From IMG/VR virus record IMGVR_UViG_3300028833_000109, positions 1 to 64,000 of that record: a DNA stretch of 64,000 nt. One strand, written 5' to 3'. Within the stretch, counting starts at the first letter, position 1. Each line of letters opens with the position of its first letter. This DNA is from a virus (lineage: Duplodnaviria > Caudoviricetes). Positions 4,191 through 23,102 of this stretch are shown one piece after another. The notes under the pieces were generated by a model, which was not told where the DNA came from, ran no database searches, and was given only the letters and a program-made list of their open reading frames with translations. Position numbers and translations under genes: made by a program.

Positions 4191-5369
4191 TTATTTATTG
4201 ATGAACTCGGCAAAAGCGGCTATGACTGTCTTGTCGAGTATCTTTGCGTATGCTTTCTCGGTGGTCTTCACTGACGTGTGTCCCAGGCACTTTGCGACAA
4301 CCTCTATCGGTATGCCGCCGTTGAGCCAAATATACCCTGCCGTCCTGCGACCGACATGGGATGTCAGTTCGGTTTCAACACCTGCCGCATCAGCGACAAT
4401 CTTCAGTTTGATGTTGTACTTCTGGTTTGATATGGTGGGCAACTGGTAGTTGTACCGCTCAAGTATCTCAACCGCTTCGGGAACGAGCACGAAAGTGAAC
4501 TCGACCCCTGTCTTCTTTCTTGCGGCCGTATAGACCTTGTGTTGCCCGCTGAACTGCACATTTGAGAAGTCGAACTCAATGAGGTCGGAGTAGGAGAGGC
4601 CGGTCAAGCACTGGAACACGAACAAATCCCTCGCTTCGGCAACCGCTCCAGTCGGCATCTTCGCCGTCTTGATCCTATTGAACTCGTCATCGTCAAGGTA
4701 CTTGTCTATCCTCGTTTCGCCCTTGTCTATCCTTATGCGCCTTGAGAGGTACGGATTTTCTTTGAGGTATCCGTCAACGACCGCATCGTTTATGAATATC
4801 TTCATGCGCTTATGTATGCCGCCGATGGTGGACTGTGTGTACTTGTGTTCCGTCCATCTCCCGTAGCGGTCACGTTTCTTCCACGAGAAAGCGTGGAGCC
4901 ATTCGTCAAAGTCGCGTATGCTTTTCTCGCTGATGTCGGAGAACGACACTATCTTCCCATATTTGGTGAGTATGCCGATAAATGCCTTGTAGTGCTTTTT
5001 TGTGTCTTTAGACACATTGCGCTTCTCTCCGCGCTCGGCAATGTATCGGATAAACGACACCGTTGCTGACGGCCTGCGGACGAGGTTAGGGATGGCGCAC
5101 AAGTCAACCATTCCATTGTCAACCATATCGGCGATGGCTTTCATGGCCTTCTTCTTCATCTCAAGCAGCACCTGGTTGCAGCGCACCGCGTCGGTTGAGT
5201 TGACAACGCACTCCCTTGTCTGCGACCACTGCGAGGGGAAACACCTGATGCCGGTGGTCATGTACTTTCTTTTCCGCAGGTATGTGATGCGCATCTCAAC
5301 AATGCCTTTCTTTGTCTTTGTCGCCGTCTTCTTGCGGTCGAAGACGAACTGGATGGTGGGTATCTTCAT
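4191..5369 (-). CDS. int: Tyrosine integrase (Bacteroidota type, arm-binding + SAM-like + catalytic domains)
   Basis: FQCLTGLSYSD, RKKT, SHVGRRT, LGHTSVKTTEKAY catalytic motifs; likely start MKIPTIQF at 5369. Confidence 0.9.
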   Translation of the reverse strand: MKIPTIQFVFDRKKTATKTKKGIVEMRITYLRKRKYMTTGIRCFPSQWSQTRECVVNSTDAVRCNQVLLEMKKKAMKAIADMVDNGMVDLCAIPNLVRRPSATVSFIRYIAERGEKRNVSKDTKKHYKAFIGILTKYGKIVSFSDISEKSIRDFDEWLHAFSWKKRDRYGRWTEHKYTQSTIGGIHKRMKIFINDAVVDGYLKENPYLSRRIRIDKGETRIDKYLDDDEFNRIKTAKMPTGAVAEARDLFVFQCLTGLSYSDLIEFDFSNVQFSGQHKVYTAARKKTGVEFTFVLVPEAVEILERYNYQLPTISNQKYNIKLKIVADAAGVETELTSHVGRRTAGYIWLNGGIPIEVVAKCLGHTSVKTTEKAYAKILDKTVIAAFAEFINK

Positions 5370-5425
5370 ATCATGTTTTGTTAATGGGGTCATGGGTTCT
5401 GACCCAGGGTGGATTTGAACTTTTT

Positions 5426-5725
5426 GTGTTACCGCTGAGAGTAACACGGTAAATTTTCAGGTAACACCATACACAAAAATACCAACAAAAGTAAACAAAA
5501 ATCAACAAAAGGAATAATATATGATGGATTCTTTTTGAGGTTACTTGTTATTGCTTTGGCTGTCAGCGGGATAGATGCCGATGTTTTATAAGAAAAAGGT
5601 GTCTTTTTGCGGACACCTTTACCAAAATATACCACTAAAAAGTGATCCTGTTGGGATTTGGTGCAGGTGTTGATAGTCAATGGGTTAGGTGTCGTTTTCA
5701 GCAATCGGTAACACGGAAGTAACAC
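5426..5725. other. Candidate attP: GTAACAC arm-type repeats flanking a tRNA-3'-end-like core
   Basis: GTAACAC at 5441, 5461, 5708, 5719, inverted at 5426; core GTGATCCTGTTGGGATT (5642-5658) is the reverse complement of a tRNA T-stem/acceptor end. Confidence 0.55.
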
Positions 5726-5902
5726 ACGGTTTTTGAAAACGAACCCATGACCCCGTTTACTGAACGATTTTGTCCAGTAAATCATCTTCGTCGATAGACT
5801 CGCCAACGATGCGGGTTTTCTCCGCTACGGAGAGTCTCTTCCAGTCCTCGTTGCCCCATTTCTCGTCAAGGATGGCAACGACCTTTTTAATCAGTTCCTC
5901 GT

Positions 5903-6292
5903 TCATAGCCTGTTGTCTAATTGGATGTATAAAGTTGTTAACTGGTTCATGATGTCCTGGTTCTCCCGCTTGAGGTTCTCGATGCGCTCCTGGTTCTGCG
6001 TGAGCCTGCGGGCGAGGTTGACGATGATGTTGCGCACACTTGGCGTTGGCTCGTTGTCGTCGGTGATGTACTTGTCGCCCCTGCCGTGCTTCAGCCAGTC
6101 GGGCGACACGTTTATCGTCTCGCAGATGTGCTTGATGTCGCGCTGGGTGAGTTTCTGCTGCCCCCGCAGCTTCTTGTGCAGGTTGCTTGGGCCTAATCTC
6201 ACCTTTGTAGCGAAGGCCGCTTCCGTTAGGAGGGAGTCGTCTATCAGTTCCCTTATCCTCGGAATGATCTCGTTCGGTTTTAGTGTTTCCAT
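5903..6292 (-). CDS. CI-like HTH repressor
   Basis: XRE-type HTH (EAAFATKVRLGPSNLHK...VSPDWLKHGRG); divergent from the rightward operon. Confidence 0.75.
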   Translation of the reverse strand: METLKPNEIIPRIRELIDDSLLTEAAFATKVRLGPSNLHKKLRGQQKLTQRDIKHICETINVSPDWLKHGRGDKYITDDNEPTPSVRNIIVNLARRLTQNQERIENLKRENQDIMNQLTTLYIQLDNRL

Positions 6293-6357
6293 AATCTTGC
6301 GTCTTTGGTTAGGTACAATTAAAAATTGTTAAAATCAACACTTTTTGCTTTGTATTT

Positions 6358-7421: not shown

Positions 7422-7590
7422 CACAATGTTACTATCCATTCTACACAGCACTTACTTTTTTCCCATAGATTTTTAGGCTAATAGGGTTTTCCATCCCCGT
7501 TGTGAAATGCGGATGGTTTTTTCGATTACAACAACACAATATAAAGACGTTCGTTTTAGGGCGTTTTCAGGTTCATTTTTCATTTCTTAT

Positions 7591-11860: not shown

Positions 11861-12178
11861 ATGGCAAACTTATTGGAAGAAACTTTTGATAATCTCACTA
11901 TTGATGAGGTTTACGAAAAAGTGGAGTGGCTTAGAATATCCTTTGATGATTGGGAGAAGCCAATAAAAATCGAACTCCCTCCAGGGTACGAGAAGCATCA
12001 ACTTGATGCAGCCATGAAGTCAATGGACTTTACATACGATGAAGGTTATGGTCATCAGATGGTGACAGGATGTGTCAAGTTTAGGGATGGCTCTTGGTTA
12101 GAAAGGTGTGAATATGACGGCGCTGAATGGTGGGAACACCGCTCCGTGCCGACATGGGATTGCAACGAACAACAATAA
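11861..12178 (+). CDS. Hypothetical phage protein
   Basis: YDEGYG..G...F.DGSWLERCEYDGAEWWE. Confidence 0.7.
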   Translation: MANLLEETFDNLTIDEVYEKVEWLRISFDDWEKPIKIELPPGYEKHQLDAAMKSMDFTYDEGYGHQMVTGCVKFRDGSWLERCEYDGAEWWEHRSVPTWDCNEQQ

Positions 12179-12187
12179 ACTGACATT

Positions 12188-12916
12188 ATGGCAACAAAAG
12201 AAAAAGAGCAAGACAATCTCGCCATCTACGAGAAAGCGAGGGAAGTGCCTAAGACAGCCTTGAAGCAAATCTACGGCGGTAGGCTGAAAGGCATGAGCGA
12301 CATCAATCCGATGTTCCGAATCAAGCGCATTACCGAGATCTTCGGGCCGTGCGGTTTCGGTTGGAAGTACGAAATCGTTGAAAAGCGGTTTGAAACGCAA
12401 GGTCAAGAGGTGAAGTGTTTCATCCAAATCAATCTCTACGTCAAGTGGAACGGCGAATGGTCAGAACCCATTCCTGGTGTCGGTGGCGCGGGCTTCGTTG
12501 ATAGGGAAAAGAATGGATTATTCGTCAATGACGAAGCGGAGAAGATGGCGCTCACGGATGCGCTTGGTGTCGCAATGAAGGCACTTGGTGTCGCAGCCGA
12601 TGTCTATTGGGATAAGGACGGCAAGGCGATTAATACCGACTCCAAGTACGCATACGACACCATTCAGCAGCAACCCGCACAACAGCAACCAAAACCCTCT
12701 CAACCACAGCCCGCAAAGCAGCCGCAGAGTCAGTCCATCTTCAACGACGAGACCGAACTTGTCGCAGAACAGGAGATGCTCGCCTGCAACTCATACGAAG
12801 AACTGACGGCCGTGTGGAGCAAATACAACAAACTCAACCCGCAGTACTGCCGCAAGGACGGCATTCTCGCAAGGGCGTTCATCACGAGGAACAACCAACT
12901 CAAACAGCCTAAGTGA
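12188..12916 (+). CDS. Rad52/Sak-like ssDNA annealing protein
   Basis: EIFGPCGFGW, KMALTDAL..A...GVAADVY, Q/P-rich linker. Confidence 0.75.
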   Translation: MATKEKEQDNLAIYEKAREVPKTALKQIYGGRLKGMSDINPMFRIKRITEIFGPCGFGWKYEIVEKRFETQGQEVKCFIQINLYVKWNGEWSEPIPGVGGAGFVDREKNGLFVNDEAEKMALTDALGVAMKALGVAADVYWDKDGKAINTDSKYAYDTIQQQPAQQQPKPSQPQPAKQPQSQSIFNDETELVAEQEMLACNSYEELTAVWSKYNKLNPQYCRKDGILARAFITRNNQLKQPK

Positions 12917-13953
12917 TGGAGCAAGGAACAATGCTTAACATGAGTGATGTCGTCTTCAACGAAGAAGAGCACTCATACACCCGTGGAGAAGAGCGGTTGA
13001 GCGGCATCACATCGCTCATTCATGATGTCTTGCGCCTTGGTGTCTATCCCGATGCCGATGCAAGGACTGAGCAGATATTCATTCCAAGGGCTGGCTATCA
13101 CGGCTCTTGTGTACACCATGCCATCCAGACCCTTGAAACGCTAGGCATTGAGGAAACGCAGTTCCCTGCCATCGAACACGAGACGCAGGACTTCGGAGTC
13201 GTGACATTCCCTGCACAGGATGTGCAGCAGGAACTCGATGGCTATAAGCAGTTTGTCGAGCAATACGGACTGCACTGCATCGCAAGCGAGTACACCGTTG
13301 ACTACGGACAGTACGCGTCGCAACTCGACAACGTGAGCGAAAACGATGCGAGCGACATCTACATCGTTGACTACAAGACCAACAATGTCGATGCCTATCC
13401 AGGCGGCAAAGAAGGCTTGAAAGCGTACCTGTCGTGGCAGTTATCGTCTTATGCGTTCATGTTTGAGCGTAAGAACCCAGACAAGAAGGTCAAGGGTTTG
13501 ATCGGTTTGTGGCTCAAGGGCGACAAGTGGGAAGCATGGGTTATCGAACGCCAGCCAGACGAAAGGGTCAAGTGTTTGCTTGAGACCACCGCTTTGCCCG
13601 CTGACAATGGCTTCATCTACATCAATCCCGAAATGCAGGTAGAGGAAACGGCAGTGGTTGAAGTCGTCGCTACACCCGATGACCTTGCCATTGAGCAGGA
13701 CTTCATTGGTGCGGTTGTCGAGATACTGAAAGCCGAAGAGAGGGCAAAGACATTGAAAGAGCAGTTGCGGTCGATGATGGAGGAGAACGGTGTGACAAAG
13801 TTTGAGTGCGACCAGTTCACCGCCAGCATCGGCAAGGCGAGCGTGCAGGAGCGTTTCGACTCCAAGGCTTTCAAGGAAGCAGACCCAGAATTGTACAAGC
13901 AGTACGTCAAGAAGTCACAAGTAAAAGGAAAATTCACGGTAAAACTTAAATAA
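12913..13953 (+). CDS. PD-(D/E)XK recombination exonuclease
   Basis: GSCVH, SEY, LD, IVDYKT, WQLSSY; paired with the annealing protein. Confidence 0.75.
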   Translation: MMEQGTMLNMSDVVFNEEEHSYTRGEERLSGITSLIHDVLRLGVYPDADARTEQIFIPRAGYHGSCVHHAIQTLETLGIEETQFPAIEHETQDFGVVTFPAQDVQQELDGYKQFVEQYGLHCIASEYTVDYGQYASQLDNVSENDASDIYIVDYKTNNVDAYPGGKEGLKAYLSWQLSSYAFMFERKNPDKKVKGLIGLWLKGDKWEAWVIERQPDERVKCLLETTALPADNGFIYINPEMQVEETAVVEVVATPDDLAIEQDFIGAVVEILKAEERAKTLKEQLRSMMEENGVTKFECDQFTASIGKASVQERFDSKAFKEADPELYKQYVKKSQVKGKFTVKLK

Positions 13954-13955
13954 TC

Positions 13956-14408
13956 ATGAATAAGATGATGAGTGAAACGCAATTAGACCGATTAGTAAGA
14001 AATGGTTGTTACGAAACCACGAGCCTTGATTGTGTGGGTTATTGCAGGGTTTCAACCAAAAAACAAAATTATGACTTACAAATTGCCGCAATAAAAAAGT
14101 TCTGCGATGAGCATGGATTGAATATCGTGCGATGGTACACGGAAACAATTAGTGGCGCGGCACCCTTTGAAAATCGTACTGCAATACTGGATGCTGCAAA
14201 GTATTGCCAAGAAAACGGGTTTGCACTTGTGGCGTATTCCTATGACCGTGTTTCAAGGAGCAACGATTTTACCTACAAATTTTTTAAGAGTTTTGAGATT
14301 GACACAATTATTGTATCAAACCCACAAATCAAAAAAGAAATCTATACTCTCGCTGATTACTGGAGTGGGCTTTATCTGCGACAAGGAACAAGTCAAGTGA
14401 TGGATTAA
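13956..14408 (+). CDS. Serine recombinase/resolvase (catalytic domain only)
   Basis: GYCRVST..Q, ETISG, DRVSR. Confidence 0.85.
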   Translation: MNKMMSETQLDRLVRNGCYETTSLDCVGYCRVSTKKQNYDLQIAAIKKFCDEHGLNIVRWYTETISGAAPFENRTAILDAAKYCQENGFALVAYSYDRVSRSNDFTYKFFKSFEIDTIIVSNPQIKKEIYTLADYWSGLYLRQGTSQVMD

Positions 14409-14443
14409 CAAACGTACAAATTCACGGTAAAATTAAAATAGAT

Positions 14444-14671
14444 ATGGAGCGATTTGAATTAGACACAAAGATTAAAGGAGTTAATGCCATGCAGTACATG
14501 GCAGACCTTATTGAAAAAAACGAGGCATTGCAGATTGACATCGAGCGCAGCAAGCAAATCAATTCGGTATTGAAGCAGATGAACAATCGCAGCAGATTGT
14601 TGCTTGATGCTGCAAAGTTTGAGTTAAAGGAGAAAGAGTTCGCCATGAAACAAAATGAGGCGGCTCAGTAA
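14444..14671 (+). CDS. Hypothetical coiled-coil protein
   Basis: 75-aa ORF preceding the CRISPR module. Confidence 0.6.
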   Translation: MERFELDTKIKGVNAMQYMADLIEKNEALQIDIERSKQINSVLKQMNNRSRLLLDAAKFELKEKEFAMKQNEAAQ

Positions 14672-14682
14672 AAAAAATGATA

Positions 14683-14772
14683 TTCGGGGCGGTTGTACGT
14701 CCTTAATTCGTGGGAAATTTCCACACGAAAACAACCTTAATTTATTGTTTTTTAATGGTTTATTCGGAATCG
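14683..14772 (+). ncRNA. Putative tracrRNA/scaffold for array 1
   Basis: GGTTGTAC, hairpin 14707-14729, CAACCTT and GTTTTTTAATG complementary to repeat 1. Confidence 0.65.
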
Positions 14773-15113
14773 GTTGTAATTACATTAAAAACCGAAGGTT
14801 GATACAACTGTAATCATCGCGCCGTAGTTTTTAAAGAGTTGTAATTACATTAAAAACCGAAGGTTGATACAACTACTATGGTGACATTACAGTGACAATG
14901 GTCGTTGTAATTACATTAAAAACCGAAGGTTGATACAACCCTGGCCGTTATTCGTGTGTGTGTCGTCAGTTGTAATTACCTTAAAAACCGAAGGTTGATA
15001 CAACGCTGCTTTGTCTCTCTCGGCCTGCTGTTGCGTTGTAATTACATTAAAAACCAAAGGTTGATGCAACAAGGCCATCTTGCTAAAAGTTGTGATTACA
15101 TTAAAAACCGAAG
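14773..15113 (+). CRISPR. CRISPR mini-array 1: 5 full + 1 degenerate 36-nt repeats, 5 spacers
   Basis: GTTGTAATTACATTAAAAACCGAAGGTTGATACAAC at 14773, 14838, 14904, 14969, 15035, partial 15089; spacers 29, 30, 29, 30, 18 nt. Confidence 0.95.
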
Positions 15114-15119
15114 TAACAA

Positions 15120-16253
15120 ATGATTATTACGAGAAAAATCGAGGTCTTTGTATGCGAAGACGATAAAGACCTGCGTAGGGCATACTACGAAAAACTTTAT
15201 GCCAATAGGGATATAGCAGTAAAGGCCGCAAATATGGCAATGAGTCACTTGTTCGCTCTCGACAACACGATGCCATACTTGAGCGACACCGACAAGGAAA
15301 AGATTGAGTTCCTTGGAGTGAAAGGCCAAAAAGCGACAAAACAAAACGCACCTTACGTTGCCGCAAGCGAGGCATTCAAAGGCCAAGCAGACATGGGAAT
15401 GATAAGCTGTGTCTTGCAGAATGCGCAAAAGATGTATCAAGAAGACAAGAAGAAAGGAATGTGGAACAAATCATTGCGATCGTACAAAAGCAATATGCCA
15501 GTGCCATATAAAAGAGAACGATTCCTTAATCTTCGTTTTGATGACTACATCAATGGAAACGGCGAAAAGCGAAACGGATGCTTTTTCACGTTGATAGGCG
15601 TGCCTTTTCAAATGCGATTTGGGAGGGACAGGAGCGGCAATAGGCTGATTGTTGAGCGAGTGGTTAGCGGAGAATACAAGATGTGTACTTCGTCACTGCA
15701 ATTCGATGGAAAGAAAATCTTTTTGCTCCTTTGTGTCGACATCCCGCAAAAAAACATCGAGTTGGATGCGAAAAAGACGCTTTATGCTTTTCTTGGTGTA
15801 ATGAATCCGATTATATGCACATGCGACGTAAAAGCGGCAAAAGAATATGATAGCGGAATGAAATCGTTTGAAATCGGCACAAAGGAAGAGTTCAACTACA
15901 GGAGAAGACAAATCCAAGAAGCCGTAAGGCGATGCCAAATCAACAATACTTACTCAACAGGAGGCAAGGGTCGCAAAAAGAAAACCAAGGCGATAGAACG
16001 CTATCACGACAAGGAGAGGAACTACGTTGACACAAAGTTGCACACTTATAGCAGGATGCTTGTTGATATTGCAATAAAGCACAAGTGTGCCAATATCGTG
16101 TTAATGAATCAGACACATAGAGAAAACTATGCGAAGGAAGATAACAAAAACGGCGAGCCGTTTGTTCTGCGTAATTGGTCTTACTATGGTCTTAAAGAAA
16201 AGATTGAGTACAAGTGCAAGATTGCAGGAATCAAGTTGAAAGAAGAAAAATAA
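15120..16253 (+). CDS. cas12f: Nuclease-dead TnpB/Cas12f-like RNA-guided DNA-binding protein
   Basis: TRKI N-terminus, SLRSYK..MP, GGKGRKKK bridge, LH.YSR.LVD.A, RNWSYY.L..KIEYK...AGI; RuvC-I D is F (YAFLG), RuvC-II E is M (IVLMNQ), Zn finger/RuvC-III missing. Confidence 0.8.
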   Translation: MIITRKIEVFVCEDDKDLRRAYYEKLYANRDIAVKAANMAMSHLFALDNTMPYLSDTDKEKIEFLGVKGQKATKQNAPYVAASEAFKGQADMGMISCVLQNAQKMYQEDKKKGMWNKSLRSYKSNMPVPYKRERFLNLRFDDYINGNGEKRNGCFFTLIGVPFQMRFGRDRSGNRLIVERVVSGEYKMCTSSLQFDGKKIFLLLCVDIPQKNIELDAKKTLYAFLGVMNPIICTCDVKAAKEYDSGMKSFEIGTKEEFNYRRRQIQEAVRRCQINNTYSTGGKGRKKKTKAIERYHDKERNYVDTKLHTYSRMLVDIAIKHKCANIVLMNQTHRENYAKEDNKNGEPFVLRNWSYYGLKEKIEYKCKIAGIKLKEEK

Positions 16254-16260
16254 AAAGAAT

Positions 16261-16348
16261 ATCGGGTTGGTTGTACAGCCTTATGTTGAGATTTTTTACT
16301 CGACAAGTTACCTTAATATATTAACAATAAGGAGATTTGTGCGCTTAG
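16261..16348 (+). ncRNA. Putative tracrRNA/scaffold for array 2
   Basis: GGTTGTAC, hairpin 16284-16305, GTTACCT and AACAATAAGGAGATTT complementary to repeat 2. Confidence 0.65.
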
Positions 16349-16646
16349 GTTGTAAATCACTTTATTGTTTAGGTGACATACAACTCAAGCTGCTGGATAT
16401 ATTCCTCAACATTAAGTTGTAAATCACTTTATTGTTTAGGTGACATACAACTGATACCAGGTCTTGTGTTGCTGCTTTGTGTTGTGAATCACTTTATTAT
16501 TTAGGCAACATACAACGTGTATGCCATAATGTTTATTCTGTAATTGTTGTGAATCACTTTATTATTTAGGTAACATACAACATTATGGCAACAATAGTAA
16601 TTGAACGAGAGTTGTAAATCACTTTATTATTTAGGTAGCATATAAT
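16349..16646 (+). CRISPR. CRISPR mini-array 2: 4 full + 1 degenerate 36-nt repeats, 4 spacers
   Basis: GTTGTAAATCACTTTATTGTTTAGGTGACATACAAC (variants) at 16349, 16416, 16481, 16546, 16611; spacers 31, 29, 29, 29 nt. Confidence 0.95.
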
Positions 16647-16660
16647 AACAACAATAAATC

Positions 16661-17149
16661 ATGTCAGTAAACAAAGCGATTATTCTTGGCCGAGTAGGTC
16701 AAGACCCGAAAATCATGGATGGGAGAAACGGCAAATTCGCCACGTTCTCCATTGCGACTACCGACCGAGCCTACACCAAGCAGGATGGCACGGTTGTCCC
16801 AGAACGCACCGAGTGGCACAACATCGTAGCCAATGGAAAACTGGTGCAGGTTATTGAATCTTTCGTCAAGAAGGGCACGATGCTCTACATCGAAGGCCAA
16901 ATCAGGACACGGAAGTACACCGACAACAGCAATATCGAGCGTTCGTCAACCGAGATTCACATCGGTGGCATGGACAGCAAGATGGAACTGCTTTCTCCCA
17001 AGAGCGATAACCAGCAGAACTACCCTGCGCCGCCCGCTCCCGCCCGTGACCCGTTGCAGGACTTCGCACCCGCACCTCCCGCACCAACGGCAAAGGAAAT
17101 CCCAGGCTACAATCCCCCTGGCAACCTTTGGGATGACCCCCTGCCATGA
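16661..17149 (+). CDS. ssb: Single-stranded DNA-binding protein
   Basis: SVNKAIILGRVGQDP, TEWHNIV, KKG..LYIEGQIRTRKY, acidic tail. Confidence 0.92.
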   Translation: MSVNKAIILGRVGQDPKIMDGRNGKFATFSIATTDRAYTKQDGTVVPERTEWHNIVANGKLVQVIESFVKKGTMLYIEGQIRTRKYTDNSNIERSSTEIHIGGMDSKMELLSPKSDNQQNYPAPPAPARDPLQDFAPAPPAPTAKEIPGYNPPGNLWDDPLP

Positions 17150-22064: not shown

Positions 22065-22550
22065 CGTCAAGTTCTTCAACGAGGACAAGCCGAGGCGGTT
22101 CACCGCAGAGAAGCAACTTACCGTGAGCGAGATTCGTGAGCGGTGCGGCAACGACGCATTGGAATGGTCTAACGCAAAACGCATTGACAATGACGATTAA
22201 GAGAGCGATTGAAGTACTCACCGAGTACAACAAGTGGCGCAGGCACAACGGAGAGCCTTGCCCGTTCAAGTACAGCAGCCTTGAACTTGGTGCAGCCATC
22301 GACGTGGCGACCCACTGCATGTGGAAACTGGACAAGATGAGTGAAATCTTCTATTTCGGAACAGGGGTAGGCGATGAAAGAAATCAAAGCGAAGTGGGGG
22401 TCTCACATCGTTGAGGCTTATCATCAGGTTCTGCTCAGTGACGAACCTTGTTATACCGAGTTCAACGGAGTGTACATCACCAATGTCGCTCCGTTTGTCG
22501 GTATGAATGAGATTGTATCCTCTGAAGAAATTACTGAATAACAACAGATT

Positions 22551-23102
22551 ATGGCAACAAAATCAGCACCAATCATCTATCTCGCCCAGTTAGAGGGAAC
22601 GAAACTCGCCCAGAAGCGCGAGATACTGCGGCTCAAACTTGAGAATCTCAAGGAGTTGCCGCACGACAAGCAGGAGTTCAAGCGCAAGAAGAAGGAAATC
22701 GTCGCCGAGATGAACTCATTGACGTTTGAGATCGACGGCAAGTACGCTGAAATCTTCAAGCAGAACTTCAAGGTAGTGCAGTACATGCTCATGATGTTCG
22801 TGGGCATGGACTTCGTGACGAGGCTCTATGACGAGGCCGCAGACATGTTCAAGGCGGTTACTGTGGGCATCAAGCGAGACGAGCTGTTGGATTTCGTCAA
22901 GTTGTGCCGAGAGGTGGCGACGAGGGCGAACAATGTCGTGCGCATCATTGACGGCGCGGGAAAGGACACGATGTCTATGGCTTACGCTGGTATGGAGGAG
23001 GGCATCGGCGAGGGTCTGCTTGACGAGTTGAGGGAGAAGGTTGAAGCCTACGGCAAGACGCCGGAGGGCAGGAAGTATTTTTATGGAGACCACAAAATAT
23101 GA
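22551..23102 (+). CDS. Hypothetical protein
   Basis: 183-aa ORF, good start context. Confidence 0.65.
   Translation: MATKSAPIIYLAQLEGTKLAQKREILRLKLENLKELPHDKQEFKRKKKEIVAEMNSLTFEIDGKYAEIFKQNFKVVQYMLMMFVGMDFVTRLYDEAADMFKAVTVGIKRDELLDFVKLCREVATRANNVVRIIDGAGKDTMSMAYAGMEEGIGEGLLDELREKVEAYGKTPEGRKYFYGDHKI

Follow-up and report, generated by a model that had tools for sequence, protein, structure and literature searches.

A phage cassette with a nuclease-dead, truncated Cas12f between two scaffold-array modules, and its possible role in silencing related phages

The DNA analysed here (the window, 64,000 nucleotides (nt)) is the first 64 kb of the IMG/VR virus record IMGVR_UViG_3300028833_000109, which is 96,349 bp long and 91% complete as estimated by CheckV. 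Because a terminase, a portal, a major head protein, a primase and an integrase are encoded in the record, we take it to be a temperate tailed phage. Its recombination/replication module, whose genes all lie on the plus strand, contains a cassette built around a gene for a nuclease-dead Cas12f (dCas12f), which stands between two clustered regularly interspaced short palindromic repeat (CRISPR) arrays. Each array has its own scaffold resembling a trans-activating CRISPR RNA (tracrRNA), and a small gene, orf75, comes first. All elements are on the same strand, in this order:

14444..14671, plus strand: orf75, a 75-amino-acid (aa) helical protein of no known family
14682..14749, plus strand: scaffold A, tracrRNA-like (R1 covariance model, 66.4 bits, E 2e-20)
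14773..15113, plus strand: array A, five full 36-nt repeats (GTTGTAATTACATT...GATACAAC) and a truncated sixth
15120..16253, plus strand: dcas12f, 377 aa, a nuclease-dead, C-terminally truncated Cas12f homologue
16260..16324, plus strand: scaffold B, tracrRNA-like (R1 covariance model, 65.4 bits, E 5e-20)
16349..16646, plus strand: array B, five 36-nt repeats (GTTGTAAATCACTT...CATACAAC), the last one degenerate

The assignment of the dcas12f product to the dCas12f lineage, as a truncated Cas12f predicted to be nuclease-dead, is secure at the level of sequence comparison. The protein matched 12 Cas12f/TnpB sequences of the PDB in a phmmer search, led by 9n9c_A ('Nuclease-deactivated Cas12f', 365 aa; E 5.2e-59 over residues 4-373) and followed by the nuclease-active Al3Cas12f (9nzo/9nzr) at E 7e-37 and then by other Cas12f and TnpB entries; the NCBIfam model guided_TnpB was matched at E 4e-21, under that model's cut-off. 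An AlphaFold2 model with a predicted local distance difference test score (pLDDT) of 82.9 had 9n9c (dCas12f with its guide RNA) as its best Foldseek match (E 1.5e-28), and the top 30 matches were dCas12f, Cas12f or TnpB without exception, with dCas12f ranking first and Cas12f after it. The fold is thus that of the type V-F lineage (WED-REC-RuvC). In alignment with active Cas12f, F224 (YAFLG) stands opposite the RuvC-I aspartate of vDLGin and M329 (IVLMNQ) opposite the RuvC-II glutamate of iqmErl, and the C-terminus falls ~90 residues short of the end of the active enzyme, so that the zinc finger and RuvC-III are missing and no intact D-E-D triad exists. These RuvC substitutions and the same C-terminal truncation go together with the homology to dCas12f, and LMNQ at RuvC-II is common to the window protein and the solved dCas12f. 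We checked the catalytic columns on a family alignment of 131 sequences, in which the 28 relatives with D/E at both columns all carry 50-121 extra C-terminal residues; nearly all non-D/E relatives carry 0-35, and six NE forms and a few others carry 54-131. An earlier note on this stretch, made from the letters alone, had described a 377-aa TnpB/Cas12f-like open reading frame (ORF) in which F replaces the RuvC-I Asp and M the RuvC-II Glu, and which ends before the zinc finger and RuvC-III. The PDB and 131-sequence alignments agree, and the comparison by profile and structure that it had proposed as a check (phmmer, Foldseek) confirmed the catalytic losses and found the TnpB/Cas12f fold.

The family has more than 1,100 homologues, in phages and prophages of Prevotella, and the closest 120 of them are 79-100% identical to the window protein, and six homologues aligned from these 120 end no more than 9 residues from its end. 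Between phages, the nonsynonymous divergence (dN) of dcas12f is 0.14-0.26, with the synonymous divergence (dS) saturated. The size of the family, the shared end point and these rates of change argue that dcas12f is not a pseudogene.

Each array is preceded by a conserved tracrRNA-like element of ~68 nt, scaffold A starting 10 nt past the stop codon of orf75 and scaffold B 7 nt past that of dcas12f. The structure was derived from 24 aligned modules of scaffold plus first repeat, taken from 14 loci. Three helices make up the proposed fold, namely a 5-bp stem 1, a hairpin 2 (GAGG...CACUC) and a pseudoknot between loop and repeat. In the pseudoknot, the 6-nt loop of stem 1 (GTTGTA in both scaffolds A and B) would pair with the last six bases of the repeat, beside the guide. 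Across the 24 modules 97.9% of cells are paired, with a compensatory change at 11 of the 18 pairs; none of 500 shuffles matched the observed pairing, and slid controls paired 31-52%. The pseudoknot helix itself is 99.3% paired and occurs in four co-varying versions (GTTGTA:TACAAC, GCTGTA:TACAGC, GCTGCA:TGCAGC and GTTGCA:TGCAAC). An anti-repeat 3' of hairpin 2 pairs with repeat bases at about -8 to -15: CAACCTT of scaffold A with AAGGTTG of repeat A, and GTTACCT of scaffold B, which is complementary to AGGTAAC/AGGTGAC of repeat B. Duplexes between cognate anti-repeats and repeats average -8.4 kcal/mol, compared with -5.0 kcal/mol for non-cognate ones (permutation p<1e-4).

A covariance model built from the scaffolds (R1) finds exactly two copies in the window. 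It also matches both flanks of the gene in L052, a locus of a phage clade with 40% identity that was left out of the building set, and sequence directly 3' of dcas12f in four loci (L036, L039, L035 and L034; E 1e-11 to 1e-4) in which the gene is linked to a sigmaE gene. Published guide RNAs of sigmaE-linked dCas12f are encoded at that position, 3' of the gene (PMC13472631), and by its predicted structure and sequence the window scaffold is homologous to what stands there. All 45 scaffold matches, from 20 loci, are on the strand of the gene, and no Rfam family matches the scaffolds. The cassette therefore has two arrays, each adjacent to a tracrRNA-like scaffold, one of which (scaffold B) lies immediately 3' of the gene, and we consider this predicted scaffold-array RNA architecture secure. 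That a single effector reads two guide families, as first suggested from the letters, is plausible, and it gains from the finding that the cognate scaffolds of arrays A and B belong to a single RNA family.

The five full repeats of array A span 14773-15070, and the truncated sixth (15089-15113) ends 6 nt before the dcas12f ATG. The full spacers of both arrays are 29-31 nt long:

Array A, plus strand: A1 14809-14837, A2 14874-14903, A3 14940-14968, A4 15005-15034, and a short A5 15071-15088
Array B, plus strand: B1 16385-16415, B2 16452-16480, B3 16517-16545, B4 16582-16610

Repeats A and B are identical at 20 of 36 ungapped positions and have the GTTGTA...TACAAC ends and an AGGT core in common. 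The last 10 nt of B2 are also the first 10 nt of A4, so both arrays sample one contiguous 49-nt target. In a sister contig (L001) whose dCas12f is 99% identical to that of the window, array B has B2-B4 in common and differs in its leader-proximal spacer, and array A has A4 in common and differs in its other spacers; such differences between phages with nearly the same effector indicate array turnover. Models for Cas1, Cas2 and the Y1 transposase found no match across the whole 96,349-bp record. Cas1 was not found either in the genome of Prevotella sp. P2-180, a lysogen that carries the cassette as a prophage; Cas2 was searched for in the phage only. The arrangement is as the earlier note had described it, with an array on each side of the gene, 36-nt repeats that have diverged yet share their ends and core, and no cas1/cas2 in the window.

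What that note missed is the 75-aa accessory gene. Homologues of orf75 adjoin the cassette in 15 loci (tblastn), always directly 5' of a scaffold/array module, and they are kept even where the backbone differs, as in L011, a Mu-like phage, and in L052 of the 40%-identity clade; the neighbouring SSB, exonuclease and single-strand annealing protein (SSAP) genes are not conserved in position across loci. At E<=1e-5, orf75 has 510 or more relatives, all of them unnamed, and it has no Pfam or PDB match; the ESM Atlas puts it among viral hypothetical proteins. Its dN/dS is 0.17-0.26 where computable. It was not found in sigmaE loci, whose flanks are short. A complex prediction of dCas12f with orf75 scored 0.02, which gives no answer and weighs neither way.

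Two of 12 aligned sequences, orf75 and one of 11 homologues, weakly matched PHROG 2044 (E 3e-5), a group of 78-aa phage proteins annotated 'RNA polymerase beta subunit', a label that is probably unreliable. The match hints at a link between orf75 and RNA polymerase.

Close homologues of the window protein occur in IMG/VR contigs, in rumen assemblies and in metagenome-assembled genomes (MAGs) of Prevotella/Prevotellaceae, and the dCas12f of the P2-180 prophage (L018) is 69% identical to it. The search for loci with the same dual-array layout, which the earlier note had proposed, was successful down to 40% identity: dual arrays with two repeat types are present in nearly every locus with enough flank, the L052 clade included, and the cassette is found on unrelated phage backbones. 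INPHARED holds no close homologue, only distant TnpB matches at protein level. Any homologue was present in only 7 of 401 sampled Bacteroidota genomes, and in the lysogen P2-180 the sole copy of the family is the prophage copy. In the tree, the dead or truncated proteins split from the intact clade with 99% support, and within them the phage/Prevotella clade (99%) is separate from the rpoE-linked clade (95%).

Several relatives add side observations on the family. A 414-aa dead relative lies at 5001-6324 of an 85-kb plasmid-like contig (L053; Rep3_C, YafQ toxin, Dam), with one downstream scaffold and no detectable array; the family thus also occurs on plasmids. The L011 Mu-like rumen phage, with a dCas12f 79% identical to that of the window, encodes ~9 kb upstream (L011:710-955) an Acb2/Tad1-hairpin family protein, a candidate anti-CBASS/Thoeris sponge. 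In the P2-180 prophage, scaffolds at 7587, 9152, 12055 and 13455 of L018 show that four or more scaffold/array modules lie no further than 6 kb from the gene, and a further scaffold-like copy stands ~20 kb away (G001:C48:90649-90708). A Prevotella MAG (L015:3357-5915) has one upstream and five downstream scaffolds, each followed by one or two half-repeats (e.g. AAGGTATATACAGC) and guides, an arrangement to be expected if CRISPR arrays turned, as has been proposed, into single guide RNAs in tandem.

The closest described system is dCas12f-sigmaE (Hoffmann et al., Nature 2026, PMC13472631; 9n9c/9n9m; also 'Sigma-TnpB', Altae-Tran et al., PNAS 2023, PMC10691335). Its effector is homologous to the window protein over the full length, is truncated after RuvC-II, is substituted in both RuvC-I and RuvC-II, with LMNQ common, and has a homologous scaffold directly past the stop codon; the phylum, Bacteroidota, is also the same. 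In contrast to that system, the window has no rpoE, and neither the phage nor the lysogen has a sigmaE bearing the special C-terminal domain (CTD); no operonic rpoE with a dCas12f-binding CTD is found. Nor are there fixed 14-16-nt guides upstream of susCD-type operons: the window has true CRISPR arrays with spacers of 29-31 nt that vary between sister phages, whereas the guides of dCas12f-sigmaE are fixed single ones, and no susCD-type target was found. Two scaffold-array modules flanking the gene, the presence of orf75, carriage by a phage and a separate clade complete the differences. Hoffmann et al. mention in passing a CRISPR-linked dCas12f cluster that might repress the promoters of efflux pumps (PMC13472631, Extended Data Fig. 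1a,b) and that resembles the window cassette in having a dead Cas12f without rpoE, beside arrays, with a covarying RNA 5' of the array and repression as the proposed outcome. That cluster comes from bacterial MAGs (Chitinophagaceae), and phage carriage, dual arrays and orf75 are not reported for it.

Type V-F Cas12f nucleases (Un1Cas12f, AsCas12f, Al3Cas12f) share with the cassette the fold, the GTTG...GAAGG...CAAC type of repeat and a tracrRNA with an anti-repeat that pairs beside the guide, but the cassette lacks the D-E-D triad, the zinc finger, RuvC-III, Cas1, Cas2 and Cas4. TldR proteins, including the prophage fliC-linked ones (10.1101/2023.11.30.569447; 10.1101/2025.07.22.666180), are likewise phage-borne, nuclease-dead, RNA-guided DNA binders for transcriptional control, and by analogy control of this kind is likely to be how the window cassette acts. 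They differ in their independent origin directly from TnpB, in their one fixed omega-RNA guide without arrays and in their fixed host target. TnpB descent, an omega-RNA and linkage to fliC or oppF are not what the cassette has: its nearest relatives are Cas12f and dCas12f, and its neighbours are recombination genes. Cas12m (type V-M) also binds or silences mobile elements instead of cutting them, is carried on mobile elements and has no adaptation genes of its own, but its effector is unrelated or distant and its RNA architecture different. Plasmid-borne type IV-A CRISPR systems similarly interfere by binding and silencing, are mobile and lack adaptation genes of their own, with a different effector and RNA.

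To what end such a complex would bind DNA depends on its targets. When the own genome was searched with up to 8 mismatches, only B4 matched, at 12185..12213 on the plus strand (23/29, the first 13 nt exact). This near-match falls short of a perfect target; it covers the start codon of the exonuclease/SSAP-like ORF at 12188. The first 13 nt of B4 also match at 22548, the start of the ORF at 22551, with a G at -1. The sequence of B4 is that of a gene start (ATG GCA ACA ...); in B3 a start codon is covered too, when the spacer is read as its reverse complement. Among the 111 spacers from all loci, a single one matches another phage. It is spacer 6 of array L006_d, whose match in phage L007 (4049-4078, 3 mismatches) lies within an exonuclease-like ORF, on its sense strand, next to a 5' flank of TTTTG.

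Other searches gave no target. Five exact scans of IMG/VR with pieces of B1, B3, B4, A2 and the B2/A4 junction, which covered six of the eight full spacers (all but A1 and A3), returned the sister contig's own array or nothing; a search of JGI metagenomes with the B2/A4 junction alone returned six 19-mers, which are chance matches. INPHARED had no DNA match to the spacers, and four related viral records no convincing one. Against 401 Prevotella genomes, array A matched at the chance rate (BLAST), and the array B matches that we examined were generic start-codon contexts of unrelated genes (ferredoxin, GreA). Similar start contexts in many Prevotella genes account for these spurious B3/B4 matches. 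In the phage, the start context AACAACAATAAA...ATTATGGCAACAA is common to several genes (window 12168-12200, 16647-16676 and 22540-22560). The arrays of the P2-180 prophage had no significant protospacer in their own host genome (BLAST).

The second line of evidence concerns the sigma factor. In published systems, a sigmaE with a special CTD binds the truncated RuvC of dCas12f, and transcription starts ~46 bp downstream of the target-adjacent motif (TAM) (10.1101/2025.06.10.658880). In agreement with the earlier note, which had seen no sigma factor next to the cassette, models of the sigma-70 family matched nothing in the window or anywhere else in the 96-kb phage. A sigmaE profile built from L034, L036 and L039 and a second profile of the CTD alone also found nothing in the phage, and in P2-180 they found only generic extracytoplasmic function (ECF) sigmas without the CTD. 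Since B3 and B4 lie on start codons, transcription begun ~46 bp beyond the TAM would start within the gene or would be directed away from it, in antisense. The absent sigmaE and the B3/B4 geometry thus favour, indirectly, binding and occlusion over activation of the sigmaE type.

We therefore propose, at a probability of about 50%, that the cassette of this temperate Prevotella phage directs RNA-guided DNA binding without cutting and thereby CRISPR interference (CRISPRi)-like silencing of related phages. A long transcript would be processed into guide RNAs, each composed of scaffold, 3' half of the repeat and spacer. With these guides dCas12f, a dimer in solved relatives, would form R-loops on matching DNA without cutting it, and the bound complex would block transcription or replication of related phages entering the lysogen or co-infecting with it; the outcome would be a CRISPRi-like superinfection exclusion. 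Blocking by binding is the most likely mode because no cognate sigmaE is available. The diverged repeat/scaffold pairs may keep the two modules orthogonal and may protect the gene against deletion through recombination of the arrays on its two sides, and orf75 may be a required partner or regulator.

This proposal follows the earlier suggestion that the system silences or blocks competing phages, by repression rather than activation. The choice of repression is strengthened, indirectly, by the lack of a sigma factor and by the B3/B4 geometry. The phage targets are favoured by the L006_d/L007 match, the 23/29 match of B4 and the start-codon geometry. Several points weigh on the other side. No true protospacer was found for the eight full spacers of the window in the searches given above, and the case for phage targets is thin, coming from one sister-locus spacer and near-matches. 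Repression is deduced from a missing partner, and RNA polymerase could still be linked to the complex by orf75 or by a factor of the host; the check for a host sigmaE covered one host genome, that of P2-180. Finally, the spacers turn over although no Cas1 was found in phage or lysogen.

The alternative that survives best, although we consider it unlikely, is that the cassette, much as TldR does, uses RNA guides to regulate genes of the host or of the phage itself, with the prophage reprogramming host genes (receptors, defence, metabolism) or timing its own early genes. The exact match of the first 13 nt of B4 at two own gene starts (12185 and 22548) is consistent with this idea, particularly as sigmaE-type dCas12f uses guides of only 14-16 nt (PMC13472631), and a dead effector would tolerate self-matches. 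Prophage-encoded TldR repressors (10.1101/2025.07.22.666180) and CRISPR-linked dCas12f guides that match efflux-pump promoters (PMC13472631) provide precedents. However, neither the P2-180 prophage in its own host nor the window arrays in the 401 Prevotella genomes produced more than the absent or generic start-context matches described above, and spacers that differ between near-identical phages fit an arms race better than fixed regulation.

A rather improbable proposal concerns orf75 itself, which might be a phage adaptor that replaces the sigmaE CTD on the truncated RuvC and couples R-loop-bound dCas12f to the host RNA polymerase. If this were true, phages would own a spacer-updatable transcription switch, for shut-off or for promoter-independent activation, that could be aimed at rival phages or at the host, with a CRISPR array feeding a transcription factor and not a nuclease.

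For RNA-guided activation as the function, with RNA polymerase recruited through a host sigma or through orf75 standing in for the sigmaE CTD, we see a slim chance. The protein ends where sigmaE-linked dCas12f ends, and in the latter the CTD of sigmaE binds to the exposed surface of RuvC; the scaffolds are homologous to those of the sigmaE-linked loci, and orf75 is a conserved partner with the weak PHROG match. On the other hand, no CTD-bearing sigmaE is present in the phage or the lysogen genome, the phage clade is separate from the sigmaE clade, a start ~46 bp downstream of B3 or B4 on start codons would be unproductive, and orf75 has no similarity to the CTD profile, with which a search of the phage genome found no match.

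It is very improbable that the cassette is a decoy or anti-CRISPR whose scaffolds, arrays or dead protein tie up the guides or effector that a type V-F system of the host uses. In favour of this reading, a dominant-negative effect is conceivable for a dead paralogue, and RNA anti-CRISPRs can consist of mini-arrays or solitary repeats borne by phages. However, the P2-180 genome holds the prophage copy only and a homologue exists in just 7 of the 401 sampled Bacteroidota genomes; moreover, the spacers are diverse and turn over, and strong purifying selection extends over the full protein, its DNA- and RNA-binding parts included. That a captured type V-F system has been decaying here and the cassette is a remnant without any present function, as the lost catalytic residues and C-terminus and the missing adaptation module might suggest, is hardly credible and already contradicted by conservation, given the same truncation point and intact frames in more than 1,100 homologues, the dN of 0.14-0.26 at saturated dS, the compensatory changes that keep scaffold-repeat pairings and the layout kept across unrelated phage backbones.

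A type VI-B (Cas13b) origin of the arrays, which would hijack a host effector, was suggested by the GTTG...ACAAC 36-nt repeats and was dropped, the adjacent protein and the scaffolds being of the Cas12f type.

The surrounding module contains the following neighbours:

start 12188, plus strand: exonuclease/SSAP-like ORF, 242 aa, upstream
start 12913, plus strand: PD-(D/E)XK exonuclease-like ORF, upstream
start 13956, plus strand: resolvase ORF, catalytic domain alone, upstream
3' of the cassette, plus strand: SSB, NinB-like, DUF3310 and DnaA-C-like genes, downstream

The resolvase ORF (13956-14408, 150 aa) has the N-terminal catalytic domain only, and copies of a 23-nt direct repeat stand on either side of it (13930-13952 and 14418-14440; 91% identical). 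With these flanking repeats it looks like an inserted cassette just 5' of orf75.

The cassette is abundant in Prevotella phages of rumen and gut and mobile between unrelated backbones, and because it is present as a prophage in the cultured isolate Prevotella sp. P2-180, its function can be tested directly. If rival phages are indeed silenced, it would be a phage-owned CRISPRi with array turnover and with no Cas1 in the phage or the checked lysogen. As a programmable DNA binder it would also be very compact, with 377 aa and a guide of roughly 90-130 nt. The finding further bears on how dCas12f systems arose. Altae-Tran et al. describe an inactivated Cas12f-derived clade in Bacteroidota, Prevotellaceae included, and propose that activity and RuvC-III were lost, that the array was then reduced to a half-repeat by the tracrRNA and that an omega-RNA-like fusion followed, with associations gained with RpoE, relaxases and phage integrases (PMC10691335). 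In the searchable parts of that paper and of PMC13472631, phage-borne cassettes with two scaffold-array modules or orf75 are not described. The published scenario requires a cleavage-dead intermediate that keeps CRISPR arrays and tracrRNA; the phage cassette fits this description, and its sister loci, with half-repeats beside duplicated scaffolds, show the next steps.

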